The position numbers were made by a program, and so were the translations under genes. The notes beneath the pieces are model-generated. The model ran no database searches. It saw only the letters and a program-made list of their open reading frames with translations, and had not been told where the DNA came from. From a virus (lineage: Duplodnaviria > Caudoviricetes), in IMG/VR virus record IMGVR_UViG_3300037422_000161, positions 1 to 36,807 of that record: a stretch of DNA of 36,807 nt; one strand, given 5' to 3'. Positions 4,502 through 19,919 of the stretch are shown here, in pieces. Each line of letters opens with the position of its first letter. Position 1 is the stretch's first letter.

Positions 4502-6947
4502 CCGGGGACGCGGCGTCAACGAGGTCCTGCTCTCCGAGGCCCGCGCCGCGCTCGCGCGTGGCTGGGCCCTGATCCCGCTCAACGGCAAGGTCCCGCTGCA
4601 GCTCGGGTGGAGCACCGCGCCGCACGCGACCGAGGCCGACGTGACGGCGTGGGTCGCGGCGGGACACAACCTCGGGCTGCGCACCGGGGCCGCGTCGGGC
4701 GTGTTCGTCGTCGACGTCGACACCGCCAAGGGCGGCGACACGTCCGCGCTCGAGCTGCCCGACACCCCCATGGTCCTGACCGGCGGGGGCGGGCGGCACC
4801 TCTACTACCGCGCGCCCGAGCCGTGCCCCGGCAACAGCGCGTCGAAGCTCGCGCCCCACGTCGACACCCGCGGCGACGGAGGCCAGGTCGTGTTCGTCGG
4901 CTCCCTGCACCCCGTCACGGGGCAGCGGTACGAGTGGGGCCCTGGGCAGACCCCGGAGGACATCGACCTCGCGGTGCTCCCGCTCGAGGTCCTCGCGCGC
5001 CTGCTGGACCGCCAGTCCTCCCCCGCGGCCCCACGGTCGGCCCCGACACCCGCGGCCGACCGGTACGCCGGCGCCGCGCTCGTCGGCGAGACCCGCGCGG
5101 TCGCGGAGGCGCCACGCGGCGCACGCAACCAGACGCTCAACCGCGCGGCGTTCTCTCTCGGCCAGCTCGTCGCCGGCGGCGTCCTGCAGCAGTACACCGC
5201 CGAGTCGGCCCTGATCGGCGCCGCGGCCGCGTGCGGCCTCACGGCCGACGACGGCGAGTCCGCGGTTCTCGCCACCATCCGCTCCGGGCTCTCCGCGGGG
5301 TCCGGGTCGCCGCGCACCGCGCCAGAGCGGCCGGCGCCACGCGCGACACGCCGCGGCCTGCACGCCGTCCCGGCGGCGGGCGCGCCAGAGCCGCCGCCCG
5401 ATCAGATGCCGGCGCCGCCGAGCATCCTGGTCCCCGGCCCGCACCTGGACGCCGCGGGAGAGTTCCACGAGGTCGGGGTCGACGACTTCTGTGCCGCGGT
5501 GCTCGCGGTGGTGCCCGCGGGCGCGATCTACCGCCGCGCGGGCGTCGCGGGCGAGCTCGACGGGCCCCCGGGCGAACGGCGCTTCCGCGAGCTGACGAAC
5601 AGCCGCACCCGGTCGATCGTCGACCAGCACTGCCGGCTCGTCCGCTGGGTCCGCAAGCGCGGCGCCCCGGTCACATCCGAGCTGTACGAGTCATGCGGCC
5701 GCGACCTCGCGACCGTGGTCCTCGACGCGGCCGCGACCGCCGCGGCCGTCCGCGAGCTCCGGATGCTCGTCAGCTACCCGGTCTACACAGGCGAGGACGT
5801 CACCCCGGTGGCGGCCGGCTGGAACGCCGACTCCGGCGTCTACTACGACGAGCCTCCGGCCCTCGCCGGCACGGTGCCGGAGGACGACCCGGCCAGGATC
5901 CGCGCGGTCCTCGACGACATGGTCGTGGACTTCCCTTTCGCGGCCGATGCCGACCGGGACAACTTCCTCGGCCTGTTGCTGACCCCTATGCTCCGCCCGG
6001 CGATCGACGGCAACGTCCCGCTGCACTTGATCGTCTCCACGATCGAGCGGGCCGGCAAAACCAAGCTGGCCGAGCAGGTCCTCGGCCTCACGGTGCTGGG
6101 CCGGGAGACCCCCCCGATGCAACTCGGAGGCAGCGACGAGGAACGCGACAAGCGCATCCTGGCCTGCCTCCGCGCCGGCGACACGATCGTGCACGTCGAC
6201 AACGTCCGCGAGTTCCTCGACTCCGCCGCGCTCGCGTCGCTCCTGACCGGCCGCTACTACTCCGGCCGCGTCCTCGGCCACTCCGAGGTCGTGGCGGTCG
6301 AGAACCGCACCACGCTCGTCGCGACCGGCAACGCGGTCGAGGGCTCCCCGGAGATCGTCAAGCGCATCATCCCGATCCGCCTGCAGCCGAACACGGACGA
6401 GCCGGAGGCCCGGCGCGACTTCCGCCACCCCGACCTCCCGGGCTACATACGTGAGTCCCGCCCCCAGGTGATCGCCGCCCTCCAGGGCGCGGTGGAGCTG
6501 TGGCGTGCCGGCGGCCGCTGGCGCTACCCCCGGCCGATCGGTGGATTCGAGAGCTGGACGGCGATCGTCGGCGGCGTCATGGCCGCCGCGGGCCGCATGC
6601 ACTGGCTCGGCAACGTGGAGCGCTGGCGGCGCGCCGCTGACCCGCAGAGCGAAGACCTGCGCGCGCTGGTCGAGGAGTGGGGAGTCAGGTACGGGGAGCT
6701 CGAGGTCACGCCGGCGCAGCTCCTTAAGGTCGCGGACGAGATCGGTGTGTTCGGCGGCATCCTACGCCAGCCGACCGAGAGGGGGCGGCTGACGGCGTTC
6801 GGGATGCGGGTCCTGCGTCGAAACGTCGGCCGGGTCGTCGGCGAGGTCGCCATACGGTTCGTGCAGAGCGGGAATAGCAGGCTGTTCCTCCTAGATCGGG
6901 ACCTTTCAAGTCCCGAGGGTCCCGAAGGTCCCGGCCGAAATCCTTGA
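4494..6947 (+). CDS. Bifunctional primase-polymerase (Prim-Pol) with C-terminal NTPase/helicase-like domain
   Basis: GWALIPL.GKVP, NLGLRTG, VVDVD, TGGGGRHLYY, DTRGDGGQVV, RNQTLNRAAFSLGQ; C-terminal RAGKTKLA and VHVDNV. ATG 4494 overlaps the VRR-NUC end. Confidence 0.88.
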   Translation: MGDRGRGVNEVLLSEARAALARGWALIPLNGKVPLQLGWSTAPHATEADVTAWVAAGHNLGLRTGAASGVFVVDVDTAKGGDTSALELPDTPMVLTGGGGRHLYYRAPEPCPGNSASKLAPHVDTRGDGGQVVFVGSLHPVTGQRYEWGPGQTPEDIDLAVLPLEVLARLLDRQSSPAAPRSAPTPAADRYAGAALVGETRAVAEAPRGARNQTLNRAAFSLGQLVAGGVLQQYTAESALIGAAAACGLTADDGESAVLATIRSGLSAGSGSPRTAPERPAPRATRRGLHAVPAAGAPEPPPDQMPAPPSILVPGPHLDAAGEFHEVGVDDFCAAVLAVVPAGAIYRRAGVAGELDGPPGERRFRELTNSRTRSIVDQHCRLVRWVRKRGAPVTSELYESCGRDLATVVLDAAATAAAVRELRMLVSYPVYTGEDVTPVAAGWNADSGVYYDEPPALAGTVPEDDPARIRAVLDDMVVDFPFAADADRDNFLGLLLTPMLRPAIDGNVPLHLIVSTIERAGKTKLAEQVLGLTVLGRETPPMQLGGSDEERDKRILACLRAGDTIVHVDNVREFLDSAALASLLTGRYYSGRVLGHSEVVAVENRTTLVATGNAVEGSPEIVKRIIPIRLQPNTDEPEARRDFRHPDLPGYIRESRPQVIAALQGAVELWRAGGRWRYPRPIGGFESWTAIVGGVMAAAGRMHWLGNVERWRRAADPQSEDLRALVEEWGVRYGELEVTPAQLLKVADEIGVFGGILRQPTERGRLTAFGMRVLRRNVGRVVGEVAIRFVQSGNSRLFLLDRDLSSPEGPEGPGRNP

Positions 6948-7070
6948 AGACGGGACCTCGGAACCTTTTAGACCTCTCCCCCTCAGTGCATGGAGAGTAC
7001 ATAGGGATTTCCCCTATGTGTACGCGTATGCAAGTGGCGGGAGAAGCCCCCGGAGGTCCACTAGGTCCCG
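6897..7070. repeat. Putative replication origin: (A/G)GGTCCCG-type iterons in both orientations around an AT-richer palindrome
   Basis: Copies at 6897, 6908, 6917, 6926, 6951, 6959, 7054 and 7063; inverted repeat ACATAGGG/CCCTATGT at 6999-7019. Confidence 0.6.
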
Positions 7071-7083
7071 CGGAGCCGGATCC

Positions 7084-7335
7084 GTGAGCCGCCCCGCTCC
7101 ACGCTGCCCCATCTGCGGCCTGCGTCCGCCCCGTAACCTCGAGGCCGCGACCTGCAACCCATGCCGCGGAGCCGTCGACGAGCTCCGGCGGCTACCACCA
7201 GCCGACCGCGCTCGCGCACTCGCCCACGCGCTGATCCGCGTCCGCCGCTGCTGGGCCGCACTGCACGGCGAGCAGGCGGTACAGGCGAACCTCGGAGCCC
7301 CGCCGCGGGTGGCAGGAAAGCCTGCCAGATCTTGA
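7084..7335 (+). CDS. Small Zn-finger protein
   Basis: GTG 7084 after GGAG; CPICG...CNPC. Confidence 0.55.
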   Translation: MSRPAPRCPICGLRPPRNLEAATCNPCRGAVDELRRLPPADRARALAHALIRVRRCWAALHGEQAVQANLGAPPRVAGKPARS

Positions 7336-7361
7336 CGGCTCCCCGATGTCGGGTGTAGCCA
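7332..7361 (+). promoter_or_regulatory. Candidate late promoter upstream of the terminase genes
   Basis: TTGACG -35, spacer containing palindrome CCCGA-TG-TCGGG, then GGGTGTAGCCAT; weak -10. Confidence 0.35.
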
Positions 7362-7405
7362 TGCTCGCGCGAGAGTCCCCGGGAGATGCCCCATGAGCCG
7401 TCGCG

Positions 7406-7957
7406 ATTGACGCACGCACCCCATCCGGCCCACGGACACCCGGCCCACGGACGATCTGTGGGGCCAAGAACCGGCGTGGCCACCCATGTGGGAACCGCCC
7501 TATCGCCGGGCGGAAGCGCTGCCGGATGCACGGGGGAAACCAGCACAAACTACCCGAGGGGCAGCGCGGCGGGGCGAAACCGACGAGCTTCCTGTACCGC
7601 CGCCACCTCCACGCGAGCGAGCGGGAGGCTTTCGACGCCGCCGCCGTTGACTCGATCGACGACGAGATCCGGCTGGCCAAAGCGAACCTCGACGCGGCGG
7701 TTAAGGCTTGGGCCGCCGATCCTCGAGGTGGGGTTGTCCAGTCGCGGGGGGACAGCGTCATCCGCGAGCGCCTGTGGTTCGATATCGTCCGCGAGCACGT
7801 CGAGTGCGTCGCGAAGCTCCTCCGCACGAGGATTGCGATGGGCCTCGGCTCCGGCGGTGGCGAGGAAGACATCGATGGGTACGAGTCGTGGCTAGCGGCG
7901 CAGCGTGCCGGGGGACCGCCCGCCGAACCACCCGGCTCGTCGTCGGGTGCGTCCTGA
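7406..7957 (+). CDS. terS: Terminase small subunit with HGGxSTG-like Zn-binding N-terminus; start uncertain
   Basis: Frame upstream of ATG 7526 encodes ICGAKNRRGHPCGNRPIAGRKRCRMHGG; SIDDEIRL motif; directly precedes terL. Confidence 0.7.
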   Translation: MDARTPSGPRTPGPRTICGAKNRRGHPCGNRPIAGRKRCRMHGGNQHKLPEGQRGGAKPTSFLYRRHLHASEREAFDAAAVDSIDDEIRLAKANLDAAVKAWAADPRGGVVQSRGDSVIRERLWFDIVREHVECVAKLLRTRIAMGLGSGGGEEDIDGYESWLAAQRAGGPPAEPPGSSSGAS

Positions 7958-9504
7958 TGGCGATTCCGACGGCCGACGCCCTGGCCGCGCTGCGCGACCC
8001 CGCGTACCACCGGCACCTGATGTTCCGCCGTGTGGACTCCGTCCTCGAGCGCCAGCTCGGCCGCGAGCTCGAGCCGCACGAGGCGCAGTCCAAGCTGCGT
8101 GGGCCACAGCTGTCGATCGTCCGCCGTATCGAGCGCGCGATCGCCGCGCGCGCCGGCGAGAAGATCTCGGTGCTCATGGCGCGGCAGACCGGCAAGAACG
8201 AGATCGAGGGCTTCCTCGAGACGCGCGCGCTGAGGGTGTGGTGCGGGATCCCTGGGTCGACCTGGGTGCGGACGGCGCCGACGCACAAGCCGCAGATCGT
8301 GAACTCGAAGCTGCGGCTCGAGAAGCACCTGCTGTGCGATCCGCTGATCGCCGGACGCTACCGCAAGCGCGAGGGGTACATCTACGAGCTGGGCAAGGCG
8401 CAGGTGCACTTCCTGTCCGGCGGGAGGACGGCGCAGGTCGTCGGTGACACCGCGTCGATCGCGCTGTCGGTCGACGAGGCGCACAAGATCGACCGGGACA
8501 AGTTCGAGGAGGACTTCGCCCCGTTCACGGCATCGACGAACGCGCCCACGATCCTGTGGGGTGTGGCCGCGGCCAAACAGGACCTGCTCCACCGCTACCG
8601 CGAGGAGGCCCGCGGCACCGACCGCGTGATGGTGTTCCCGGCCGCGGTGTGGTGCGAGTTGTCGAAGCCCTACGCAGGCCACTACGAGACGCGCCGGCGC
8701 GAGCTCGGCGCCGACCACCCGGTGATCTTGACCCAGTACGACCTGGTTCCCGTCGAGGCCATCGGGGCGTACCTGAATCCCGCGCAGCGCGCTGCGCTGT
8801 TCGCGGGCGACCACCCGCGTCTCGAGGCTCCGCGCGCCGGGATGTCCTACGGCATCCTGGTCGACATCGGCGGCGAGGTCGAGTACGAGGCCGACAGCGA
8901 CGAGGTGCGCGAGCTCGAGCCCGGGCGCGACAGCACCCAGGTCCTGATCGTCGAGTGGGATCCGCGAGCGCCGCAGGAGCCGTACCCGGTGACGCGGATC
9001 GTCAACGCCCTCACGTGGACCGGGAAGCAACACGAGGCGGCCGGTCCCGAGATCGTGAAACTCTGCCACCACTGGCGCGTCGGCGTCGGAGCCATCGACG
9101 CCGTCGGCGTCGGCGAGGCCACCGCGGGCTACGTGAGCCGGCGCGTTCCCGCGGTCGCGCCGTACAAGGCGACGTCGACGACGGTGTCCGAGGACTGCTT
9201 CGACCTCCTGGCCCGGTTGAACTGCGGGACCATCACCGCCTGGCGCGCGGACACGGCCGCGGACGCCGAGCTGCGCGAGCTCGAGGCGCAGAGCCGGCAC
9301 ACGCGCTACGAGATCCGGGGCCACACGAAGATGCGCCTCAAGAAGCCGACCGGCATCGGCACGTCGGACCTGCACATCGACATGGTCAAGGCGCTGACCT
9401 ACGCGCGCCTGGTCGTCGGCCGCGCCCCCTACTCCGGCCTGCTGGGCTGGATGGAGCAGAAGGCCGAGGCTGCGCGTGCCGCGCGGGAGGCGCGGAAGTC
9501 GTAG
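7957..9504 (+). CDS. terL: Terminase large subunit
   Basis: MARQTGKNE Walker A, LSVDEAH Walker B, C-terminal nuclease-type acidic motifs (LVDIGG, AIDAVGVG, HIDMVKA); TGATG coupling at 7955-7959. Confidence 0.88.
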   Translation: MAIPTADALAALRDPAYHRHLMFRRVDSVLERQLGRELEPHEAQSKLRGPQLSIVRRIERAIAARAGEKISVLMARQTGKNEIEGFLETRALRVWCGIPGSTWVRTAPTHKPQIVNSKLRLEKHLLCDPLIAGRYRKREGYIYELGKAQVHFLSGGRTAQVVGDTASIALSVDEAHKIDRDKFEEDFAPFTASTNAPTILWGVAAAKQDLLHRYREEARGTDRVMVFPAAVWCELSKPYAGHYETRRRELGADHPVILTQYDLVPVEAIGAYLNPAQRAALFAGDHPRLEAPRAGMSYGILVDIGGEVEYEADSDEVRELEPGRDSTQVLIVEWDPRAPQEPYPVTRIVNALTWTGKQHEAAGPEIVKLCHHWRVGVGAIDAVGVGEATAGYVSRRVPAVAPYKATSTTVSEDCFDLLARLNCGTITAWRADTAADAELRELEAQSRHTRYEIRGHTKMRLKKPTGIGTSDLHIDMVKALTYARLVVGRAPYSGLLGWMEQKAEAARAAREARKS

Positions 9505-11974
9505 CCTCGCCAAGCGGCTGCCGCCCGGCGTGGTCCGCACCGCGCCCCTGTCGGTGACGCTGCCGGAGTTCTTCGACCCGGTCTCCGGGCGTGCGCTCGG
9601 CGATCGCGCGGCGTCGCTGATGCCGAGCGCGTCTCGTCCGTTCCCCGCCGGCGAGCCGCCTCCGACCGGGCAGCCCACGGGCTCGCACCCGCGAGCGCTC
9701 ATCCCGCCGCCGTTCCAGAACACAACCGGCCACCGCCGGCGGTGGCGCGGGATCGACCTCACGCCGTTCGCGCAGCTCCGGGCGCTGTCGCGTTTCGACC
9801 TGGTCCGGGTCGTGATTCGCGACATCAAGGGCCAGTGCCAGGGGATCGAGCTCGAGGTCGCGGTCCGCGACGAGTTCAAGGACCAGGCCCGGGCGCTGCA
9901 GCCGAAGGTCGACGCGGCCCGCGCGTTCGTCGAGTGCCCGGACCCGCTCGCGGACCTGGACCTCGCGGGGTGGGTCGGCAAGGCGATCGAGGAGATCTTA
10001 GTCACCGACGCGCTGTCGCTCTACCCGATCTTCTCGAAGGGTGGCGAGCCGCTCGGACTCGGCCAGATCGACGGCGCGACGATCAAGCCGCTCGTCGACG
10101 ACCTCGGCCGGCCTCCGCTGCCGCCGAACCTGGCCTACCTGCAGTACGTGCACGGCCTGCCGGAGACGGGCTTCTACCAGCCGCTCGGCACGCCGTCGAG
10201 CCGCGAGCTGTGGTACCTGCCGTACGAGCGGCAGCCCGACTCGCCGTACGGCTACAGCAGCACCGAGCAGGTGCTCATGACCGTCAACCTGGCGATCCGC
10301 CACACCCTGCACGACCTCGCGTACTACACGAGCGGCAGCCTCCCGGACTCGCTCTACACGATGCCCGAGGGGTGGAACCAGGAGACGATCGAGAAGTTCC
10401 AGCTCTGGTGGGACGACGTCCTGGACGGCCGCAGCGATCGCCGCGCCGGCGGCGTGCGATTCGTTCCGCAGGGCACCTACACCGCGACGAAGACCCGGGA
10501 GTTCAAGTACGACTTCCTCGAGTGGCTCGGCCGTGTGATCGCGTGGGGCTTCGGCGTGTCGCCGCTGCCGATCATGCGGATCTCGAACCGCGCGCAGGCC
10601 GACCGGATGGAGCAGAGCGTCTCGGAGTCGGGCGTCCGGCCGCTGATCGGCTTCGTGGTGCGCATCCTGAACCGCTACGTTCAGCGCGTGCTAGGCCTGG
10701 CGGAGATCGAGGTGCGGCTGCGTGACGACGAGGTCGAGGACCCCGCGGTCGTGGCCACGCGGAACGTGTCCTACGTGCACGGCGGCATCCGGACGCTGAA
10801 CGCCACCCGCGCGGACCTCGGCGAGGAGCCGTACCCGGCCGAGTTCGGCGATCGCCCGTTCGTGATGACGCCCTCGGGCCCGCTGTTCCTCGACACGATC
10901 GAGGAGGAGCGCAAGAGGCGTGAGGAGCAGGCGGCCGCGCTGGCGGCGAGGCTGGGCGGCGGCGGCCAGCCGGGCGGCGGCGCTCCCGGGGCGGGTCCCG
11001 TAACCGACCCGGAGCCCGACCCCGATACCCTCACCGAAGAGCCCGCGCTCGAGCGCCTGCACCGCTGCCACGTCGAGCACCGCGGGCGCGTCCGCGATGA
11101 CCTGCAGAAGCGTCACCGCGTGCAGAAGCGCCACCCGGGGCGCGCGTTCGTCTCGACGCTGATCCCGCCGCGGGGCGCCGCGCGGCGGTTCCAGAAGGCC
11201 GAGCTCGCGCTGACGACGGAGCAGAAGGCGCTAGAGGCCTCGCTGCGCACGGCCGTGTCCGCGTGGCTCGCTGCGCAGCTCCCGGTGGTGACGGCGTGGG
11301 CGATCGGCTTCCTGCCACCGGCGCCAGCGGCGAAGCTCGCGAAGCAGCTCCCGCTGCCGCCGTTCGTCGGCGAGAAGGACCTGTTCAACGCCATCTCGGC
11401 CGTGCTGTTCGAGGCGCACCAGGTGGGCGCCGGCGACGCCGCGCTGTCGATCGCGGCCGACCTGAGCACTCCGTCCGAGACCGCGCTGGCCTACGCGCAG
11501 GAGCGCGCGGCCGAGCTGGTCGGAAAGACGTGGATCGCGGGCCAGCTGGTCGACAACCCGAGCCCGAAGTTCGCGATCACGGACACGCTGCGGCAGGACG
11601 TGCAGTCGCTCGTCACGCGGGCGATCGCGGAGGGCATGTCGCCGCAGGACCTAACGTCGAAGATGGTCGAGACGTTCGGGCCGTGGCGCGCGGAGACGAT
11701 CGCGCGCACCGAGACGGGGATCGCGTACAACGCCGGCGCCGCGGACGTCTACGAGGCCTCGGACGTCGCCCACGTCGAGATCCTCGACGGCGAGGGCTGC
11801 CTGCCCAGCGGGCACCTGGCGGGCGCGCCGAAGGCCAGCGGGTCGGTCGGCGTCGTCGAGGAGAACGCGGAGGCGGACGGGCAGGTCTGGACCGTCGCGC
11901 AGTGGCGCGAGCTGATGCTGGGGCACCCGAACTGCGTCCGTGCCGGCGTGCCGTACTTCGCTGGGGAGGTCTGA
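9497..11974 (+). CDS. Portal protein fused to Mu gpF-like head morphogenesis domain; start AGT 9497 or GTG 9476
   Basis: Portal motifs (IDGATIKP, SPYGYS..EQ, FGVSP, GIRTLNATRADLG) and C-terminal RAETIARTET..AYN...HPNCVR. Confidence 0.88.
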   Translation, partial: SRSLAKRLPPGVVRTAPLSVTLPEFFDPVSGRALGDRAASLMPSASRPFPAGEPPPTGQPTGSHPRALIPPPFQNTTGHRRRWRGIDLTPFAQLRALSRFDLVRVVIRDIKGQCQGIELEVAVRDEFKDQARALQPKVDAARAFVECPDPLADLDLAGWVGKAIEEILVTDALSLYPIFSKGGEPLGLGQIDGATIKPLVDDLGRPPLPPNLAYLQYVHGLPETGFYQPLGTPSSRELWYLPYERQPDSPYGYSSTEQVLMTVNLAIRHTLHDLAYYTSGSLPDSLYTMPEGWNQETIEKFQLWWDDVLDGRSDRRAGGVRFVPQGTYTATKTREFKYDFLEWLGRVIAWGFGVSPLPIMRISNRAQADRMEQSVSESGVRPLIGFVVRILNRYVQRVLGLAEIEVRLRDDEVEDPAVVATRNVSYVHGGIRTLNATRADLGEEPYPAEFGDRPFVMTPSGPLFLDTIEEERKRREEQAAALAARLGGGGQPGGGAPGAGPVTDPEPDPDTLTEEPALERLHRCHVEHRGRVRDDLQKRHRVQKRHPGRAFVSTLIPPRGAARRFQKAELALTTEQKALEASLRTAVSAWLAAQLPVVTAWAIGFLPPAPAAKLAKQLPLPPFVGEKDLFNAISAVLFEAHQVGAGDAALSIAADLSTPSETALAYAQERAAELVGKTWIAGQLVDNPSPKFAITDTLRQDVQSLVTRAIAEGMSPQDLTSKMVETFGPWRAETIARTETGIAYNAGAADVYEASDVAHVEILDGEGCLPSGHLAGAPKASGSVGVVEENAEADGQVWTVAQWRELMLGHPNCVRAGVPYFAGEV

Positions 11975-11975
11975 T

Positions 11976-12005
11976 GCGGCCGCCGACTCAGCGGCCGCCG
12001 ACTCA
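11976..12005 (+). repeat. 15-bp tandem repeat (GCGGCCGCCGACTCA)x2
   Basis: Exact tandem duplication just after the portal stop. Confidence 0.8.
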
Positions 12006-12114
12006 GCGCCGGGCCTACGAGGCGCCGCAGGTGATTCCAGCGCCGCCCTTCGGCGGCTCCCCACGAATCGCGTTCCTCATGTCCGCCTGGGACTGCGAGT
12101 GGCTCAGGTCTCAT

Positions 12115-12187
12115 CGCCGCGTGGAGCAGACGGTAGCTCGCCGGTCTACTTTGCCGGAGGTCGCTGGTTCGAGTCCAGCCGCGGCTA
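12115..12187 (+). tRNA. Initiator-type (tRNA-fMet-like) tRNA with anticodon ACU (reads AGU); CCA not encoded
   Basis: C-GCCGCG/CGCGGC-U-A acceptor with C1:U72 mismatch and A73; D stem GAGC/GCTC (A11-U24); anticodon stem CCGGT/GCCGG with loop CT-ACT-TT; variable AGGTC; T arm GCTGG-TTCGAGT-CCAGC. Confidence 0.9.
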
Positions 12188-12211
12188 CCCCCCTGATACC
12201 GGAGGCGCTGA

Positions 12212-12574
12212 AGTCCCCGCACTGACGTACCCGTAACCGTCGTCGGCGTGGCCGGCCTCGCGCTGGGCGCGCCCGCGACCGAGGTCGCGGGCGACACGGT
12301 CAACGGGCACAAGATGCGCAACACCGGCCGGGAGTGGCTGCACGTGCGCAACACGAGCGGGTCGCCCGAGACGGTGACGCTCATCATCCCGCGCACGGTC
12401 GACGGCGCGGCCGTCGAGGACCCCCAGCGCACCATCGCCGCCAACGAGTCCCGGTCGTTCCCGCCGTTCAACGAATCGGTCTATGACCCCGGCTCCGGTG
12501 CCGAGGACGTCGGCTACCTGACCTTCGACGTGTCGTCCGCGAACCTGCGGTTCCAGGCGTTCCGCAAGAGCTGA
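12212..12574 (+). CDS. Small beta-rich virion (head-associated) protein; predicted AGT start
   Basis: GGAGG-cgctga-AGT-CCC-CGC-ACT gives xPRTDVPVTVVGVAGL...GDTVNGH.MRNTGREWLHVRN; GTG 12248 has no SD. Confidence 0.75.
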   Translation, partial: SPRTDVPVTVVGVAGLALGAPATEVAGDTVNGHKMRNTGREWLHVRNTSGSPETVTLIIPRTVDGAAVEDPQRTIAANESRSFPPFNESVYDPGSGAEDVGYLTFDVSSANLRFQAFRKS

Positions 12575-12600
12575 GCCCCCGGGCCAGACGGAGACCCACG

Positions 12601-13842
12601 ATGAGCAACGCGAGATTCGAGCGGTTCGTCCCGATCACCAAGGTCAACGAGGAGACCCGGGAGGTCCACGGCATTCTCGCGCTCGAGCAGCCCGACCACG
12701 CGGGCGAGATCATGGACTACGAGAAGTCGAAGCCATTCATCCAGGAGTGGAGCGACTCGTTCAAGCTCGCGACCGGCGGCAAGAGCGCGGGCAACCTGCG
12801 CGCGATGCACGGCAACGTGTGCGCGGGGAAGTTCACGGCCGTCGAGTTCAACGATGCCGACAAGTCGGTCCCGGTGGTGGCGAAGGTGGTCGACGAGCAG
12901 GAGTGGGCCAAGGTCGTCGAGGGCTGCTACACGGGCTTCTCGATCGGCGGATCGTATGGCGACGTCTGGATGGACGGCAAGCTCAAGCGCTACATCGCCA
13001 AGCCGGTCGAGGGCTCGCTGGCGGACAAGCCGTGCATGCCCGGCGCAACGTTCACGCTGATCCGTGCCGACGGCTCGGTCGAGCTGCGGAAGTTCGTCGC
13101 CGCGCCGCCCGCGCCCACCGAGGCCGTCGCGAAGTGGCTCGACGGCTCGCTGCGCAAGGCGCTCGAGGCCGCGGTCGCGGCCGGCGACTCCGCGATCGAG
13201 TCGATCAAGGCCATGGCGGTGCAGATGCTCGGCGAGGCCGGGAAGCCCGACACGTGGTCGATCGAGGACCTGATGCAGGCAATCCGCCGGGTCGCCGGCG
13301 CGCAGTATTCGGCGGCATCCGCCGGTGGAGGACTGAGCATGTCGACGCAGCCCGAAGTCACGAAGACCGCGCCGGTCGCCGGCGCCCCCGCGGCGACCGC
13401 GGACCCCGCGCCGCCGGCACCGGCCACCGCGCCGGCCGGCGACGTCCACATCCTGAAGCAGATCACCGACACGCTCGGAGCGCTGCACAAGGCGCTGACC
13501 GACCAGGCCGGCGAGCAGAAGGCCGCCCGGGAGGAGCTCGGCAAGGTCGTGGAGGCCGCGACGGCGGCCGCGACGTCGAGCATTCTCGAGAAGGCAGGGG
13601 CTCAGTTGGCGGAGGTCCAGAAGTCGCTCGAGGAGCGCATCGGGAAGATCGAGGCCCAGCCCGCCCGTCCCGGCGTCCCGGTGGACAAGACGGTCGGGGT
13701 GACCGGCGCGCACCCGCTCGCCGCGGAGTTCGGAAAACTGGAGGCGCTGATCCAGACGCTCGAGAAGTCGGGGGCCGACTCGGCCACGATCCGCGACGTT
13801 CGGATGGCGGCCTCGCAACTGGCGCTCGCGCCGCTGCGCTAG
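12601..13842 (+). CDS. Prohead protease with C-terminal scaffold region
   Basis: ITKVNEETREVHG, NLRAMHG, YTGFSIGG, EGSLADKPCMPGATF; C-terminal Ala/Pro linker and coiled coil. Confidence 0.85.
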   Translation: MSNARFERFVPITKVNEETREVHGILALEQPDHAGEIMDYEKSKPFIQEWSDSFKLATGGKSAGNLRAMHGNVCAGKFTAVEFNDADKSVPVVAKVVDEQEWAKVVEGCYTGFSIGGSYGDVWMDGKLKRYIAKPVEGSLADKPCMPGATFTLIRADGSVELRKFVAAPPAPTEAVAKWLDGSLRKALEAAVAAGDSAIESIKAMAVQMLGEAGKPDTWSIEDLMQAIRRVAGAQYSAASAGGGLSMSTQPEVTKTAPVAGAPAATADPAPPAPATAPAGDVHILKQITDTLGALHKALTDQAGEQKAAREELGKVVEAATAAATSSILEKAGAQLAEVQKSLEERIGKIEAQPARPGVPVDKTVGVTGAHPLAAEFGKLEALIQTLEKSGADSATIRDVRMAASQLALAPLR

Positions 13843-13863
13843 CGGCCACAACGGAGGTGCTGA

Positions 13864-15333
13864 AGTAACCCGCAACTGACGATGGACACGCTCGGCCAGG
13901 TGGCCGAGGCGATCAAGGGCCTGCGCGCCAACCCCGCGCTGGCGAAGGCGATCGACCTCGCGACCGGCCTGACGGGCTTCAACTTGGAGGCTCCCGCGAA
14001 GCTCCAGGTGCCGCTGCTCGCGCCGTTCCGGCAGAGCATCGGGCGCCGGGTCTGGCCCGGCAACGGGACGAACTGGAAGGCGATCACCGCGGTGACGCCG
14101 ACCGGGACACTGAAGGCCGCGGAGGCCACGAAGGCCAACGCGTGGGCGCTCACGAAGGTCGACAAGTCGACGACTTACGGGTCGTACGGACGAGCCGGCA
14201 GCGTGACGTGGGAAGGCCAGCTCGCCGGCATGAACTTCGAGGACGTGCGCGCTCGCGACGAGGCGATCACGCTCCTTCAGTTCCTGCGCGAGGAGGAGGC
14301 CTGCATCCTCGGCGGGCACGCCGGCACCGCGCTCGGCGCGAGTCCGACGATCACCGCGGTGGCGGCGGCGGCCGGAGGCGCGCTCGTCGACGACCAGTAC
14401 TTCTTCATGATCGTCTCGCTGACGATGGCGGGCGCGATCCGGGCCGGGCGCATCATGCGGCCGACGCCGGGCACGAACAAGTACGACTTCCTGGCCGCGG
14501 ACGGGCAGACGCTGACGCTCGGCGACGGTCACGGGCTCGTGTCCGCCGAGGCCAACGCGACGGTCGCGGGCGGCGGCGGAGCCGGCCAGGTGACGCTGAC
14601 CTGGACGCCCGACCCGGAAGCCGTCGCGTACGCGGTGTACTGCGGCCTCACGACGGGCGCGGCGAACCTGAAGCTGCAGGGCGTCGTGTCCCAGACCGAG
14701 GTGATCATGACCTCGTTCGGCACGCTGGGCGCGGCCGCGTCGCTCGTCGCGGCCGCAGGCGACACGTCGAACAGCGCGCCGTTCAGCGGGATCCTCTCCC
14801 AGCTCGTGGCGGCCGGCTCGGGGGCCTACACGCGCAACCTGAACAACCCGCTGTCGGCGGCGTCGGGTCGCGGGATCGCCGAGATCGACCTGATGCTCGA
14901 CGACATCTACGACCGTGTGAAGGAGGAGCCCGACCGGCTGCTGATGGGATGGACGGAGCACCAGGCGATCGACGACAAGATGTCGGCGGTGGCCAACGAT
15001 CGCGTGAACCTCAACGTCACGGTCGGCGCGGACGGCGACCCCGGGGCGCAGATGCCGCGGTTCACGAAATACAAGTCCAGCCGCGGGAAGCTCATCCAGA
15101 TGGAGGAGAACCCGAACATCCCGGGCGGGATCATCATCGCGCTGAAGGACCGCGTCGCGTTGCCGAACTCGGAGGTCCCGTCGCCGTGGCAGATGCACAT
15201 GGCGGCGGAGGTCATGCGGCTCGACTACGCGATGACGGCGCCGAAGGACGAGTTCGAGGTGCGGGCGCGCGGCGCGCTCGCGGGCTACGTGCCGTCGTTC
15301 CAGGGCGTCCTCTACAACATCCACGAGGCGTGA
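13864..15333 (+). CDS. Major capsid protein; predicted AGT start
   Basis: Follows the protease/scaffold; GFNLEAPAK..., EEEACILGG, central beta-rich insertion; GGAGG-tgctga-AGT in frame, whereas ATG 13882 lacks an SD. Confidence 0.85.
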   Translation, partial: SNPQLTMDTLGQVAEAIKGLRANPALAKAIDLATGLTGFNLEAPAKLQVPLLAPFRQSIGRRVWPGNGTNWKAITAVTPTGTLKAAEATKANAWALTKVDKSTTYGSYGRAGSVTWEGQLAGMNFEDVRARDEAITLLQFLREEEACILGGHAGTALGASPTITAVAAAAGGALVDDQYFFMIVSLTMAGAIRAGRIMRPTPGTNKYDFLAADGQTLTLGDGHGLVSAEANATVAGGGGAGQVTLTWTPDPEAVAYAVYCGLTTGAANLKLQGVVSQTEVIMTSFGTLGAAASLVAAAGDTSNSAPFSGILSQLVAAGSGAYTRNLNNPLSAASGRGIAEIDLMLDDIYDRVKEEPDRLLMGWTEHQAIDDKMSAVANDRVNLNVTVGADGDPGAQMPRFTKYKSSRGKLIQMEENPNIPGGIIIALKDRVALPNSEVPSPWQMHMAAEVMRLDYAMTAPKDEFEVRARGALAGYVPSFQGVLYNIHEA

Positions 15334-15362
15334 CCCTGGCCGGCTTCCGAGACTGAACGAAC

Positions 15363-15396
15363 CGGGCGGCCGGGGGCATCGCGCTCCCGGCCGCCC
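15363..15396 (+). terminator. Strong GC hairpin after the capsid gene (terminator or mRNA stabiliser)
   Basis: GGGCGGCCGGGGGC-ATCGC-GCTCCCGGCCGCCC; no U tract. Confidence 0.5.
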
Positions 15397-15409
15397 AACG
15401 AGGAGCGCG

Positions 15410-15685
15410 ATGGCGAGGAAGGACGATCGACACGAGACGCACGCGGCGGGAGTCGCCCAGGGTGCTGCGCCCGAGAGTGCGGCGGATCCGGTGGCGGCGG
15501 ATCCGGTGGCCCAGGAGGCCCCGCCTCCCGCGGCCCCGTCGGCGACGATCACGATGAAGGCCCCCGCGGGCGCCTGCGACGTGTGCTTCGACGGCGAGAC
15601 CTACCCGGTCGCGAAGGACGGAACGGTGAAGCTCCCGCGCGCGGCTGAGCGCGTGCTCGTCCCGCTGGGCTTCCGCACCACGTAG
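15410..15685 (+). CDS. Small Ala/Pro-rich virion-associated protein
   Basis: AGGAG SD and ATG; position after the capsid gene. Confidence 0.7.
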   Translation: MARKDDRHETHAAGVAQGAAPESAADPVAADPVAQEAPPPAAPSATITMKAPAGACDVCFDGETYPVAKDGTVKLPRAAERVLVPLGFRTT

Positions 15686-15695
15686 GGCGCGCTGA

Positions 15696-16334
15696 AGTAT
15701 CGGCACGACCGCAGAACTGAAGGCCTGGGCGCGGACGAAGCTCGACTCCGCGGACGCCACCCTGCTGACCCGCGTCCTCACCGCGGCCTCGGACTACATC
15801 GAGGACCGCACCGGGAGGCTGTGGGCCAAGGCGGAGCACACGCTCTACTTCGACGGTGACCGCGCGGACGGGCGCAACCGCGAGCTGCTGATCGTGCCGC
15901 CGCGCTACCGGCCGGCGCACTACGCTCCAGGGACCGACGAGATCACCGTCACCGAGGACGGCACGGCGCTCGTTGTCGCGGTCGGGTACTCGACCACCGC
16001 GGACGTGATCCTGCGCAACGCCAACGACCCGCGGCAGAGGCTCGCGCTGGTACGACGCGGGACGAGCCCGCAAAACCTGCTGGCCGACTCGCCGGCGACG
16101 CCCGGATGGGCCGGCGGCGTGCAGAACATCGCCGTCACGCTGAAGGCGGGGCCCGCCACTGGCACGGCCCCCGCGGACCTCGTCCAGGCGGCCTACGAGC
16201 TGGCCTACCTGTTCTACGACGACCCGACGCGCGTGGGGAAGAGTTCGTCTTCGCGCGCGGGCGCGTCCATCACGGTCGAGCGCGACCTGTCGAAGATCGC
16301 GCAGATGGCGATCGCGTCGAGGGCCGTGGCGTGA
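15696..16334 (+). CDS. Head-tail connector (gp6/gp15-like adaptor); predicted AGT start
   Basis: From AGT 15696: xIGTTAELKAWARTKLDSADATLLTRVLTAASDYIEDRTGRLW...NIAVTLKAG...PADLVQAAYELA; first canonical start (GTG 15894) is 66 codons downstream. Confidence 0.82.
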   Translation, partial: SIGTTAELKAWARTKLDSADATLLTRVLTAASDYIEDRTGRLWAKAEHTLYFDGDRADGRNRELLIVPPRYRPAHYAPGTDEITVTEDGTALVVAVGYSTTADVILRNANDPRQRLALVRRGTSPQNLLADSPATPGWAGGVQNIAVTLKAGPATGTAPADLVQAAYELAYLFYDDPTRVGKSSSSRAGASITVERDLSKIAQMAIASRAVA

Positions 16335-16972
16335 GCGCCCCGATCACCAGCGGCGCCGTGGTCATCGACCTGGGCGAGCTCGAGCGCCTGGTCGAGGCGC
16401 AGGGCATCAAGCTGCCGGCCACGGTGGCCGTCGGCCTGCGCGAGTCCGTGCTGCTGATGATCGCGGACGTCACCAAGAACCGCCTGCGCGGCCAGTACCT
16501 CCACCGGCGCACCGGGACGCTGATCCGCAGCATCACCGCGTCGCCGCCGGCGAGGCCGGAGGTCACCCTGCAGGGCGACGGGGGCGGGCTCGTCCGCGAC
16601 TGGTTCGGGACGCACCTCGATTACGGCCGCGCGCACGAGCTCGGCTTCCGCGGCCGCGTGCAGATCCCGGCGCACACCCGGCGGCTCACGCGGAACGTCA
16701 AGCGAGCGAAGGCGCGGCTGCGTCAGGCGCAGAAGCGTCTCGGCCCGGCCGCCCCGGTGGGCGGCCTGAGCAGCGCGGGCTTCGCCGTCAAGCGCTTCGC
16801 CCACGTCCGACCGCACAGCCGGTTCATGCGCATCCGCGCGCGCCACTACCTGCGCGACACGATCGCCGCGAACACCGGGAAGGCCCGGCTGCGCGTCATG
16901 CGCGCGGTCCTCCTGCTCCTCCGGACCGGCCGCGTGCCGCGGGGCTCCGAGGTGCGCAGTGCACTCTCGTGA
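16331..16972 (+). CDS. Neck/tail completion protein (HK97 gp10 / virion morphogenesis-like)
   Basis: GTGA coupling; RRTGTLIRSI, GTHLDYGRAHELG, RARHYLRDTI. Confidence 0.75.
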   Translation: MSAPITSGAVVIDLGELERLVEAQGIKLPATVAVGLRESVLLMIADVTKNRLRGQYLHRRTGTLIRSITASPPARPEVTLQGDGGGLVRDWFGTHLDYGRAHELGFRGRVQIPAHTRRLTRNVKRAKARLRQAQKRLGPAAPVGGLSSAGFAVKRFAHVRPHSRFMRIRARHYLRDTIAANTGKARLRVMRAVLLLLRTGRVPRGSEVRSALS

Positions 16973-17964
16973 GCAACGTCGTCCAGGAGCCGGGATTCGA
17001 GGACTCGGCGCCGTGGCAGCTGTTCAGCAACGCGAGCATCGGCGGCGCGGAGGGCGTGCACGGCGGAGCCGCGGCGCTCGTGCTCCCGATCTTTCGCACG
17101 GCCGGCGGCATCGTCGCCCAGGGCGAGGGGCGGCAGTCCGTGACGCTCGTCCCTGGGCTGGCCTACCAGGGGCTCGCGGCCTGGGTCAAGTGGAAAGGCG
17201 GCAGCACCTACCCGCTGAGGTTCCAGCTCGACGACGGCAGCGGGATCCTCTCCACGGTGCTCACGGTCCCGACGTCGGACATGCCCGAGGACACGTTCAC
17301 GCGGGTCCAGGTCGTCGGGACGCACCTGGCGGTCGGGGCCGCGGGGCGCGTCTCGTGGCTCGGGTTCCCCGCCGCGGGGCAGTCGGCATTCGAGGTCACG
17401 ACGTGGGTCGTGGACGACGTCGAGCTCGACGACGGCAGCGTCGTCCCGTCACCGGAGGACGTCGTGGCGTTTCGTAAGTGGCTCGTGGCCGAGCGGCTGC
17501 GCGACAAGCTGCTGACGATCCAGGGGGCGGGGGCGGGCTACTGGACCACGCTGGGCGATCGCGTGTTCTACAACCTAATCTATCCGCACGAGGACGGCGC
17601 GCCGCGCGACCCGTACGTCTGCATCCCCTTCGACGGCAGCGCGGGCCCGCTCCCGGTGATGGAGCATCGGTCGCTCAAGCTGACCTGGCCGCAGCCGATC
17701 TACGCCTTCGCTCCCAACCCCAACGAGGAACTGCTCGACCGCTCCGGCGAGCTCGCGCGCCGCACCGCGGACCTCGAGGACGACCTGGTGCGCGCGCTGA
17801 TGAGCCCCGACGTGGCCTTCGGCGACCTCGTCAAGGACAGCCGCCTGCTCCCGATCGTCCCGCACGCCGGCGAGGATCCGGAGTTCCACTGGGGTCAGGT
17901 CAACGCGGTCGTGGAGTTCGACGCAATCGTGCAGCACTCCAATCTCGGCCCGGGAGGTGTTTGA
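16969..17964 (+). CDS. Tail terminator-like protein with N-terminal carbohydrate-binding-like domain
   Basis: N-terminal VVQEPGFED...VVDDVEL jelly-roll-like pattern; C-terminal LRDKLLTIQG.G.GYWT...DLEDDLVRAL. Confidence 0.55.
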   Translation: MSNVVQEPGFEDSAPWQLFSNASIGGAEGVHGGAAALVLPIFRTAGGIVAQGEGRQSVTLVPGLAYQGLAAWVKWKGGSTYPLRFQLDDGSGILSTVLTVPTSDMPEDTFTRVQVVGTHLAVGAAGRVSWLGFPAAGQSAFEVTTWVVDDVELDDGSVVPSPEDVVAFRKWLVAERLRDKLLTIQGAGAGYWTTLGDRVFYNLIYPHEDGAPRDPYVCIPFDGSAGPLPVMEHRSLKLTWPQPIYAFAPNPNEELLDRSGELARRTADLEDDLVRALMSPDVAFGDLVKDSRLLPIVPHAGEDPEFHWGQVNAVVEFDAIVQHSNLGPGGV

Positions 17965-18354
17965 AGTAGCGCGCAACGGATAGAGCTCGTCGCCTCCGCG
18001 CCGAAGACCGCGAGCGGAGAAAGCGACTCCCGCAAAGTCTCGACCGTCTCGATGCTGTTCGTCGGCATCGACATCACCGCCTACGCCGGAGGCGCCGGCT
18101 TCACCGCCTGGCTTCAGGGCTCCGACGACGGCGGGACCACCTGGTACGACCTGCTCGCAGACCAAGTGCTGCCCTCGACGGGCGTCGAGGTCGGCGGCAC
18201 ACCCGCAACGAACGTCCGCGACATCTGCGACGACGCCGCGGCGGCCGGCAAGTTCTCGGCCGTCTACAAGCACATCCCGACCGACTACATCCGCCTCGCC
18301 TGGGACCTCGACGGCACGAGCGTGACGTTCAGCAGCTCGGCCGTCGGGAAGTAG
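17965..18354 (+). CDS. Beta-rich structural protein; predicted AGT start
   Basis: GGAGG-tgtttga-AGT gives xSAQRIELVASAPKTASGES...LQGSDDGGTTWYDL...YIRLAW; ATG 18052 has no SD. Confidence 0.72.
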   Translation, partial: SSAQRIELVASAPKTASGESDSRKVSTVSMLFVGIDITAYAGGAGFTAWLQGSDDGGTTWYDLLADQVLPSTGVEVGGTPATNVRDICDDAAAAGKFSAVYKHIPTDYIRLAWDLDGTSVTFSSSAVGK

Positions 18355-18372
18355 GGTGCAGAGGAGACACGC

Positions 18373-18651
18373 ATGCGCATGCTGAAGTTCGGCGGCCCGA
18401 ATCTCCCAGAAGGCACGAGCACCTGGTACGACACGCCGAGCCCCGCGAAGAAGGGCGAGTACGTCCAGGTGCGTGCGGAGCCCGGGCTGATCGTGCCCGC
18501 GGACCACGTCATGAAGTTCGCCGGCGCCGACGAGCGCGGCGCGGCGAAGCTCGAGCCCAACGCGGACTACTACGTCGCGAGCGGACGCGCCGAGTTCGCG
18601 GAGGAGAGCGCGCCGGCGTCAGCCCCCGCGCGCGCGAAGCCCAAGGAGTGA
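18373..18651 (+). CDS. Hypothetical tail-region protein
   Basis: GAGGAG SD and ATG. Confidence 0.65.
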   Translation: MRMLKFGGPNLPEGTSTWYDTPSPAKKGEYVQVRAEPGLIVPADHVMKFAGADERGAAKLEPNADYYVASGRAEFAEESAPASAPARAKPKE

Positions 18652-18707
18652 TCGAGCCGAGGTAGTGACCGACAACCCGTGCCGGCGCGCCCGGCGAGGA
18701 GGAACAG

Positions 18708-19238
18708 ATGGCTCTCGACGCAACCAAAATCATGGTGGGCGCCGGTGTGTTCTCGATCGGTGACTGGGTGACCGCGGGCGGGCCGGGGACGCTCGTCGAC
18801 GTCGGCCACATCAAGAGCCCGTTCGAGCTCGCGGCGTCCTTCGACAACTTCGACATCGAGACGGAGCGGCTGCAGGGGATCCTGGACCACCGTCCGACGA
18901 AGACCGACTACACGCTGAAGGTCGCGTTCCACCAGGCCGAGGTCGAGTGGCTCCGCATCGCACTCGCGCAGCCGGCGACGAACAAGAGCGGCACCGGCGC
19001 CAACCTCACGCTGCTGGTCGGCGAGCGCGCGAACCTGGACCACCAGGCGACGCTCGTGACCGCGGGCCCCGGGACGACGGGCGTGCGGACGCTGACATTC
19101 TGGCGGCTGAAGCTGATGTCGGTCGAGGCGATCCAGGTGGGCAAGGGGGTCGAGCAGCTCTACATCGCGACCTTCCGAGTGAAGCACGATCCGACGCTCT
19201 CGACCGCGGACAAGAACTGGAAGCAGGTCGACGCGTAG
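18708..19238 (+). CDS. Major tail tube protein
   Basis: GAGGAGG SD; MALDATKIMVGAG...LVDVGHIK; size and position before chaperone and tape measure. Confidence 0.75.
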   Translation: MALDATKIMVGAGVFSIGDWVTAGGPGTLVDVGHIKSPFELAASFDNFDIETERLQGILDHRPTKTDYTLKVAFHQAEVEWLRIALAQPATNKSGTGANLTLLVGERANLDHQATLVTAGPGTTGVRTLTFWRLKLMSVEAIQVGKGVEQLYIATFRVKHDPTLSTADKNWKQVDA

Positions 19239-19241
19239 GCC

Positions 19242-19270
19242 GACCGGGCGCGGAACACGCCGCGCCGGTC
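19242..19270 (+). terminator. Hairpin after the tail tube gene
   Basis: GACCGGGCGCGG-AACACG-CCGCGCCGGTC (one bulge). Confidence 0.4.
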
Positions 19271-19283
19271 AGCGGATCACCAG

Positions 19284-19919
19284 GTGAGCGCCAGGAGCTT
19301 CATCCGACACCGCCGGCCCCTCCGTCACGAGGGCCGGCGATACGTCGTTCGCGGTCCGACCTACGCGACCGTGTGGGCGCTCGTAGCCGCGTACCCGGTC
19401 GAGGTCGCGGGCATGGCCGCGGCGCACCTCGCCCACCCTGGAGCGGTCACGGTCGAGTCGGCGCTGGGCCTGCTCGTCCCGGCCCGAGGCGACCGCCGCG
19501 CCGTGGACGTCCTCACTACCTGCGTCGAGACGGAGGCCGACCCGGCGACGTGGCCACTCCGCACCCTCGCGCTCGCGATGCTCGGGCTCTGCGATCTCGG
19601 GGCGATCATCGCCCACGTCGGGATCGAGCGTCTGGCGGCGATTGCGGAAGCGGAAGGAACGACCGCGCGGGCCGAGGGAGGGCCGGACGAGGACGGCCGC
19701 GACGGCGCGACCGCGATCCTGGAGATCGCCAGGCTCTTCGGCTGCTCGCCCATGGACGTCATGGACTGGCCGTACGAGGCCGTGATGGTCGCGCTCGACG
19801 TGCTCCCGGACATGCTCGGCCGCGGCGGCGAGCCGGAGGACGGGTCGGGCCACAGCCCGGAGTTCATGCGCATGCTCCGCGAGATGGCGCGCAAGCCGCC
19901 GACGAAGCCGGAGGCCTGA
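19284..19919 (+). CDS. Probable tail assembly chaperone
   Basis: Between tube and tape measure; IARLFGCSPMDVMDWPYE resembles gpT-like tails. Confidence 0.6.
   Translation: MSARSFIRHRRPLRHEGRRYVVRGPTYATVWALVAAYPVEVAGMAAAHLAHPGAVTVESALGLLVPARGDRRAVDVLTTCVETEADPATWPLRTLALAMLGLCDLGAIIAHVGIERLAAIAEAEGTTARAEGGPDEDGRDGATAILEIARLFGCSPMDVMDWPYEAVMVALDVLPDMLGRGGEPEDGSGHSPEFMRMLREMARKPPTKPEA

Follow-up and report, generated by a model that had tools for sequence, protein, structure and literature searches.

Bacterial translation is thought to start through a single tRNA, with anticodon CAU. A11:U24 and A73 are features of this bacterial initiator, tRNA-fMet, and the AUU that starts infC is a near-cognate natural start read by host fMet-tRNA. 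The GTC of Streptomyces sigR is reportedly another near-cognate natural start (PMC5472188). An unpaired 1:72 with G2:C71 and C3:G70 constitutes the Fmt determinants of initiator tRNA-fMet, and the essential anticodon-stem element in the E. coli initiator is G30 (PMC5389676); quadruplet pairing has also been shown for E. coli tRNA-fMet (PMC10018350). Engineered initiators with an AAC anticodon are charged by ValRS and formylated (10.64898/2025.12.21.695813, 10.1101/2021.05.25.445580), and the engineered anticodon/codon pairs CCU/AGG, UAC/GUA, CUU/AAG and AAC/GUU initiate in several E. coli strains (10.64898/2026.04.16.719103), which matches the statement in an initial annotation of the DNA studied here that anticodon variants of tRNA-fMet can start at non-AUG codons. 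Amber-start phiX174 biocontainment shows that a lock in which capsid genes depend on such a tRNA can work (10.1101/2024.07.29.605542). Here, we describe the tailed-phage record IMGVR_UViG_3300037422_000161 (hereafter the window, meaning the whole stretch of 36,807 bases), in which an initiator-type tRNA with anticodon ACU very probably starts virion genes at AGU, a private start code.

The tRNA lies between the portal and protease genes (Table 1). It had been annotated initially as fMet-type, an assignment borne out by its initiator identity elements. The acceptor stem contains the Fmt determinants, as a C1:U72 mismatch followed by G2:C71 and C3:G70; A73 and, in the D arm, A11:U24 are both present, CCA is not encoded, and the variable loop has 5 nt. 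In the anticodon stem, G29:C41 and G30:C40 are followed by U31:G39, which replaces the third GC pair, and the loop reads CU-ACU-UU, placing U at positions 37 and 38. The minimum-free-energy fold is a cloverleaf; the corresponding z-scores of the tRNAs compared here were unremarkable. Elongator tRNA-Ser has a long variable arm, a paired 1:72 and G73; the ARAGORN label Ser-ACT was rejected on account of the 5-nt variable loop, C1:U72 and A73. An origin of ACU from UAC by a slipped loop is possible and unsupported, because conserved second residues account for the A after AGT. According to ARAGORN and Rfam, the ACU tRNA is the sole tRNA of the window, and no CAU tRNA is encoded there. A frame of 83 codons (11974-12225, + strand), whose ATG is coupled to the stop of the portal gene, crosses the whole tRNA and overlaps the start at 12212. 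This frame matched no family and no homolog except tRNA-like sequence and is probably incidental; translation through it could affect release of the tRNA.

In-frame AGT codons occur at 9497, 12212, 13864, 15696 and 17965. As initially annotated, all five are preceded by GA, four directly by an in-frame TGA, and AGT is otherwise uncommon, accounting for 5 of the 6,474 internal codons in 19 window genes. The pattern GGAGG-N3-6-GAAGT, chosen post hoc, occurs at five sites, against a mean of 0.2 and a maximum of 2 in 300 dinucleotide shuffles; four of these sites are proposed starts and the fifth, at 13611, is internal. A looser count of AGT codons at Shine-Dalgarno (SD) spacing, of the kind proposed in the initial annotation, gave nine GGAGG-N5-8-AGT sites versus 3.7 expected, a number reached in 4 of the 300 shuffles. 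The observation of SD-spaced AGT codons at the expected gene starts stands for 12212, 13864, 15696 and 17965, with a weak SD (AGGG, overlapping the upstream stop codon) at the connector gene, and is ambiguous for the portal gene, which has a competing GTG.

Table 1. Features of the window discussed in the text
Feature	Position	Strand	Basis or remark
Likely portal start, GGAGG + 6 nt + AGT	9486..9499	+	rival GTG at 9476
Portal fused to MuF-like minor head domain	9497..11974	+	phrog_2662 E 6e-47; PF04233
Initiator-type tRNA, anticodon ACU	12115..12187	+	Rfam RF00005, 51.1 bits; anticodon 12148-12150, then TT
120-aa virion-module gene, SD at 12201, putative AGT start	12201..12574 (gene 12212-12574)	+	phrog_38030
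Prohead protease/scaffold	12601..13842	+	ATG in the window; tRNA-bearing relatives have GTA or TTA
Major capsid, SD at 13853, putative AGT start	13853..15333 (gene 13864-15333)	+	homolog N-termini
Head-tail connector, putative AGT start	15684..16334 (gene 15696-16334)	+	PF05135
129-aa virion-module gene, SD at 17953, putative AGT start	17953..18354 (gene 17965-18354)	+	homolog N-termini

Judged by alignment, AGT is in the register of the homologs' Met in four virion genes. The capsid search returned 41 homologs, the best phage matches being annotated as major head or capsid proteins. The close, full-length homologs open M-x3-4-L-T-x-D/E-T, and the window counterpart, QLTMDT, begins upstream of the ATG at 13882. 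In the connector, residues 6-41 align to positions 5-39 of the PF05135 profile, the MLITRAEVL of the L004 homolog is in register with the window's xIGTTAELK, and the first standard start is 66 codons into the gene. Residues 5-118 of the 12212 protein align to positions 5-108 of the phrog_38030 profile and its L063 homolog begins MAARTP; used as a query, the protein matched only itself. Homologs of the 17965 protein open MSASQRF, GTG-SASQRI, MAARDID or GTA-ARVYEL.

The window's relatives use other codons. A search with the capsid alignment fetched 71 loci; a single-sequence search of viral contigs had found no capsid relatives. The capsid gene has an SD-spaced GTA start in L001, L003, L005, L006, L057, L059, L060, L062 and L064 (duplicates L058, L065 and L071), and in these loci GTA is also a frequent start of other genes, including those for portal, protease, connector, neck and tape measure. 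L006/L071 and L060 encode initiator-type tRNAs whose anticodon is UAC and in which the three GC pairs are all present. The tRNA scans described below added L073, with a UAC tRNA and a GTA portal start, and L081, with a UAA tRNA and a TTA protease start; in these UAC/UAA loci, the tRNA lies 2-4.5 kb upstream of the portal gene. Six relatives (L002, L004, L056, L063, L066 and L067) have ATG capsid starts. L004 is a complete provirus, G002 (100%), with ATG/GTG starts and no tRNA; its starts were assigned by homology, the self-trained gene caller being poor on this GC-rich genome (20 genes without a standard start, unused). Codon and anticodon thus change together with Met in register, in keeping with the orthogonal initiation code proposed in the initial annotation. 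The homolog alignment suggested there yields the expected register and co-occurrence; the ACU tRNA itself was found only in the window.

The set of recoded genes varies within the family: the protease starts with ATG in the window versus GTA or TTA in relatives, and the 17965 homolog with ATG, GTG, GTA or AGT. A quick capsid tree places the window together with two proteins that have standard starts (Shimodaira-Hasegawa-like approximate likelihood ratio test, SH-aLRT, 99); in it, GTA lineages appear at two separate positions and start states are interleaved, indicating that the code switched, or the tRNA moved, more than once. The sole hint of a host is L071, a prophage in a metagenome-assembled genome of Ca. 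Polarisedimenticolia whose capsid is 38% identical; G002 and G419 are classed as proviruses. In L069 (370-400), the capsid gene has a TCA start after an in-frame TAG, in a register matching the GTA of L006, and its neighbours start with ATG/GTG. This start predicts an initiator with a UGA anticodon; no tRNA was found within the 4.1-kb contig. Five database capsid entries (P0014, P0020, P0024, P0025 and P0030) are 35-55 residues short and lie at zero or near-zero tree distance from GTA-starting loci, from which it appears that gene callers truncate such genes.

To look beyond this family, viral contigs were scanned four times with a pattern that required a D arm and an anticodon stem of initiator type and an anticodon other than CAU; A11:U24 formed part of the pattern, and acceptor-stem identity and A73 lay outside it. 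The scans returned 22, 14, 23 and 8 loci (67 in all, 4 of which are not tRNAs); the CAU version of the pattern occurs in an estimated 2,000 or so stored stretches. A relaxed-score ARAGORN search yielded noise. The first three scans and the family together yielded 34 distinct altered tRNAs, of which 29 have an unpaired 1:72, 31 have both G2:C71 and C3:G70, and 31 have A73. When 13 chosen tRNAs (12 with cognate starts and one CAU) were aligned, two-sided changes were seen at 13 of the 21 pairs, and every one of the 13 had an unpaired 1:72. Unrelated phages provided the anticodon/start pairs CGU/ACG, CCU/AGG, CUU/AAG, UAU/ATA, AAC/GTT, GCU/AGC, CAG/CTG and GAC/GTC. The non-CAU (D34) pattern was also run on 401 genomes of the phylum of G003 and matched in the G003 prophage only, so the altered tRNA was not found as a host feature in the genomes searched. 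G003, for which completeness is not given, had no CAU initiator fitting the pattern.

A blind test was performed on one locus per cluster (27), the window and L060, 29 loci in total, counting codons at SD distance in genes lacking an SD-backed or coupled standard start. Cognate starts numbered 37 versus a label-permutation mean of 7.3 and maximum of 29 (0 of 100,000 permutations), a p-value that is optimistic because five family loci are related and the loci are not fully independent. The cognate codon ranked first in all eight loci in which it was present two or more times, and 16 of the 29 loci scored 0. Cognate starts without a strong SD were later found in seven zero-scoring loci (L077, L082, L090, L091, L123, L135 and L138). 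No recurring non-standard codon was found in 19 control loci. PHROG scans of 35 and then 19 proteins translated from the cognate codon identified portals, capsids, tails, tape measures, terminases, an endolysin, a spanin, RusA and an RNA ligase; the match often begins only a few residues from the cognate codon, and 7 of the 35 and 1 of the 19 had no family. In the L107 capsid, residue 2 corresponds to profile position 4 and the first standard start is 187 codons in, and the major tail gene of L114 contains no ATG, GTG or TTG. In 6 of 8 loci, all near-identical, from a CAG scan made after the blind test, terminase and capsid genes begin with CTG. Two further loci bear mention. In the complete phage G416 (L153-L155), which has a tRNA array, AGG-start candidates make up 15 of the 75 genes called; RusA, an RNA ligase and a gene resembling the small terminase are among them. 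L120 (919-992) encodes an initiator-type tRNA with the amber anticodon CUA, labelled Pyl by ARAGORN; no convincing TAG start was found in its 11 kb, in a record that is 24% complete.

The pairing appears to extend one base farther upstream than the start codon. In a hand-curated list in which several loci contribute a single site and from which two borderline sites (one matching, one not) were omitted, tRNA base 37 is complementary to the base preceding the start codon in 59 of 71 starts and in the majority of starts at 16 of 17 loci (0 of 100,000 permutations); for L077, the second of two AGC codons was chosen. The combinations include U37/A in the window, A37/T in L006 and L117, C37/G in L081 and G37/C in L091. 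This pairing accounts for the GA and the TGA/TAA that precede private start codons.

A cultured phage also has such a tRNA. The Bacteroides phage BS-TP2 (PQ571275.1) encodes an unannotated GAC tRNA (L193:6607-6679) whose acceptor stem is that of fMet and whose positions 29-31 lack GC pairs. A cognate GTC start lies at L193 7130, 11 codons before the ATG annotated for gp53; like the CAG/CTG pair, this GAC/GTC pair was found after the blind test. The position of the GTC differs by at most one residue from that of the ATG in the L076 ortholog, and RRIN is conserved upstream of the annotated ATG. The equivalent site reads GCTGA-GTC in BS-TP2, GCTGA-GTT in L135 and L138 (AAC) and GCTGA-GTA in L123 (UAC). 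In L076, L090, L123, L135, L138 and L193, a small Arg/Gly-rich open reading frame (ORF) lies about 450-550 bases downstream of the tRNA; it has a private start in five of the six, and in L076 it starts with ATG and the ParB-like gene carries the private start. BS-TP2 and L076 share the order tRNA, ASCH gene, small ORF, PAPS-reductase-like gene and ParB-like gene. Apart from BS-TP2, the GenBank phage tRNAs that were read have ordinary anticodons (seven of eight CAU plus one near-pattern CAU; Javan59 and L201 CAU; Piffle Ile), and no altered initiator tRNA was found in RAP44 (6 kb on each side), RG-TP1 (an Asn tRNA only) or two fecal scaffolds. In prophage Javan59 (L199:20001-20075), an unannotated ordinary CAU initiator tRNA lies just upstream of the small terminase gene, an arrangement that is plausible as the ancestral state.

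Several observations, together with the relatedness of loci in the blind test, weigh against a private start code. For the portal, the in-frame GTG at 9476 has GAGG 6 nt upstream; spacing from the start to the RLP motif is one residue in 5 of 8 portal relatives, and AGT gives five and the GTG twelve. With an SD at both codons, the AGT is the more probable portal start by some way, and the case is ambiguous. The capsid ATG is only six codons downstream of the AGT. The tRNA lacks the three consecutive G:C pairs at 29-31/39-41, owing to U31:G39. ACU/AGU is absent from the 12 engineered pairs tested, as far as the accessible text of 10.64898/2026.04.16.719103 goes, and the main text of PMC11744186 does not mention it; there is no obvious synthetase for ACU. 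The ACU/AGU pair is known from one genome, the ACT-anticodon pattern having no match in viral contigs. Among the GTA loci, L001, L003, L005, L057, L062 and L064 appear too short to include the usual position of the tRNA, and the L059 sequence starts roughly 30 bases beyond that point; G002 is the only complete ATG-starting relative in which absence of the tRNA could be checked. Finally, no cognate start was found, homology and context searches included, in 9 of the 29 test loci (L072, L074, L084, L093, L113, L120, L126, L133 and L136), and the complete records G406 and G409 are among the loci without one. The tRNAs of L072, L122/L126 and L130/L133 combine an initiator-type D arm with a paired 1:72 and no cognate starts, and are possibly initiators turned elongators, or decayed.

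According to the mechanism we propose, the tRNA would be cut from the late transcript and receive CCA from host enzymes. A host synthetase would charge it, SerRS being unlikely because there is no long variable arm, and Fmt would formylate it via the C1:U72/G2:C71/C3:G70 stem. G29:C41 and G30:C40 would admit it to the P site, where, by means of U37/U38, it would form four to five base pairs with GA-AGU, starting the capsid, the connector, two other virion-module genes and probably the portal. Host tRNA-fMet would read AGU poorly, and virion proteins would therefore need both their own mRNA and the phage tRNA. The likeliest purpose, offered tentatively and at somewhat less than even odds, is a translational gate that ties virion synthesis to strong late transcription: with the tRNA co-transcribed with virion genes, weak, leaky transcription would yield almost no virion protein and full late transcription would yield it. 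Such a gate fits the window, G415, G417 and G419, whose cognate starts are concentrated in the virion or lysis module. Elsewhere, two phages have cognate starts on RusA and RNA ligase genes as well, so a restriction to late genes is not universal. No sigma-70 promoter match was found within 6800-19400 of the window. As to origin, ordinary phage CAU initiator tRNAs heading late operons, followed by repeated code switches, are the likely source.

The same initiator mechanism could serve counter-defence, with initiation of virion proteins continuing after host toxins, or the phage itself, had cleaved or disabled the host's tRNA-fMet. This tRNA is a target of cleavage by VapC-type toxins, and changes in the anticodon loop are seen in phage tRNAs (PMC10264068). 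We consider this purpose possible at about one chance in four: G416, with its CCU tRNA in an array and AGG starts on RNA ligase and RusA, is a better fit than the window, whose terminase, protease, major tail, tape measure and lysin genes start with ATG/GTG and would still need a CAU initiator, which it does not encode. Several Bacteroidota-type phages, moreover, have only one or two cognate genes. Of the two purposes offered in the initial annotation, the late-gene gate therefore suits the window, and simple toxin escape fits it poorly. A slightly less probable alternative is a neutral ratchet, in which starts drift to the cognate codon gene by gene and the phage grows dependent on its tRNA. 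The differing recoded gene sets of relatives and the interleaved start states on the capsid tree are as such drift would have them, and most private codons are one substitution away from ATG, GTG or TTG. Against it, recoded starts cluster in the virion module of the window, G415, G417 and G419, and the recurrence in many lineages with matched -1 bases suggests selection.

Two alternatives dispense with the initiator. Host tRNA-fMet, or re-initiation, might start the genes at AGT or a nearby ATG/GTG, the tRNA being a decayed gene or an elongator with no connection to these starts. Many codons support initiation at a low level (10.1101/2021.05.25.445580), and the nearby capsid ATG and the similar tRNAs without cognate starts are compatible with this account; we regard it as quite improbable, since it leaves unexplained the tracking of codon and anticodon across eleven pairs, AGU is two positions away from AUG, the tRNA has no Ser features, and so few internal AGT codons imply no elongation demand. 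Least probable of all is a trans-acting regulator or structural RNA that delivers no amino acid: its CUACUUU loop can form 7 nt of pairing with GAAGUAG at 17965 and 6 nt with two other sites, yet the triplet that matches invariably occupies the Met position in frame, formylation-type acceptor identity is retained, and conserved second residues account for the A at +4.

The reading that phage-encoded initiators with changed anticodons start genes at private codons extends beyond the window. Phages of several bacterial groups have probably evolved such codes repeatedly, with at least 11 anticodons, matched starts and matched -1 bases; they would form an orthogonal switch for particle production, possibly with a non-methionine first residue, mis-annotated as elongator tRNAs and truncated genes. 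If natural and repeatedly evolved, start-codon reassignment joins the known variants of the genetic code, and one class of phage tRNAs, whose role has long been an open question, would gain a concrete function. Private starts would explain truncated gene calls, such as the five short capsid entries, and evolved orthogonal initiators would be on offer to synthetic biology and biocontainment. The culturing of BS-TP2 makes the system testable now. As to the window sequence, contigs from run X1 (9300-14649 and 14636-18200), which is possibly the source sample, have no base differences to it. The window is the whole of the virus record, at 71% GC; both contig ends (1-110 and 36600-36807) fall within coding sequence for short peptide repeats, which makes it probable that the genome is incomplete. 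No integrase was found among the window proteins scanned against families.

No natural phage private-start system was found in the openly available main texts searched; precedents there were engineered only. A term check of the accessible text of PMC10264068, PMC13092985 and 10.64898/2026.03.19.712862 found no description of one. The proposed system would operate much like an engineered orthogonal initiator and parallels stop-codon recoding, but belongs to neither group, nor to tRNA-fMet proper. With engineered initiators it shares an fMet body with a changed anticodon, a cognate-codon start and capsid genes that would depend on the tRNA, and the natural CCU/AGG, UAC/GUA, CUU/AAG and AAC/GUU pairs are ones that work when engineered. 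It differs in being natural, phage-encoded and present in many lineages, with co-adapted bases 37 and -1 and often U31:G39. In stop-codon-recoded phages (10.1101/2021.08.26.457843), a phage tRNA likewise gives structural and lysis genes a code foreign to the host, and late-gene or prophage control has been proposed; there, recoding affects elongation at TAG/TGA throughout genes, whereas here it concerns one initiation codon per gene, under standard code 11 and with many codons. The window was rejected as a stop-codon-recoded phage: its 19 genes translate under table 11 without internal stops, and its only tRNA is ACU. Like tRNA-fMet and its ordinary phage copies (PMC5389676; Javan59, Pan5, PaMx74), the window tRNA has the 1:72 mismatch, G2:C71, C3:G70, A11:U24, G30:C40 and A73, and several altered copies lie, like the CAU copy of Javan59, just upstream of a small terminase gene. 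Unlike tRNA-fMet, it has ACU rather than CAU and U37/U38 rather than A37/A38, and has lost the third GC pair. Near-cognate starts also place a non-standard codon on a real gene and permit translational control; AGU was rejected as a near-cognate of AUG, being two changes away and accompanied by a dedicated covarying tRNA. Near-cognate starts rely on reading by host tRNA-fMet and on discrimination by IF3, and no tRNA is dedicated to them.

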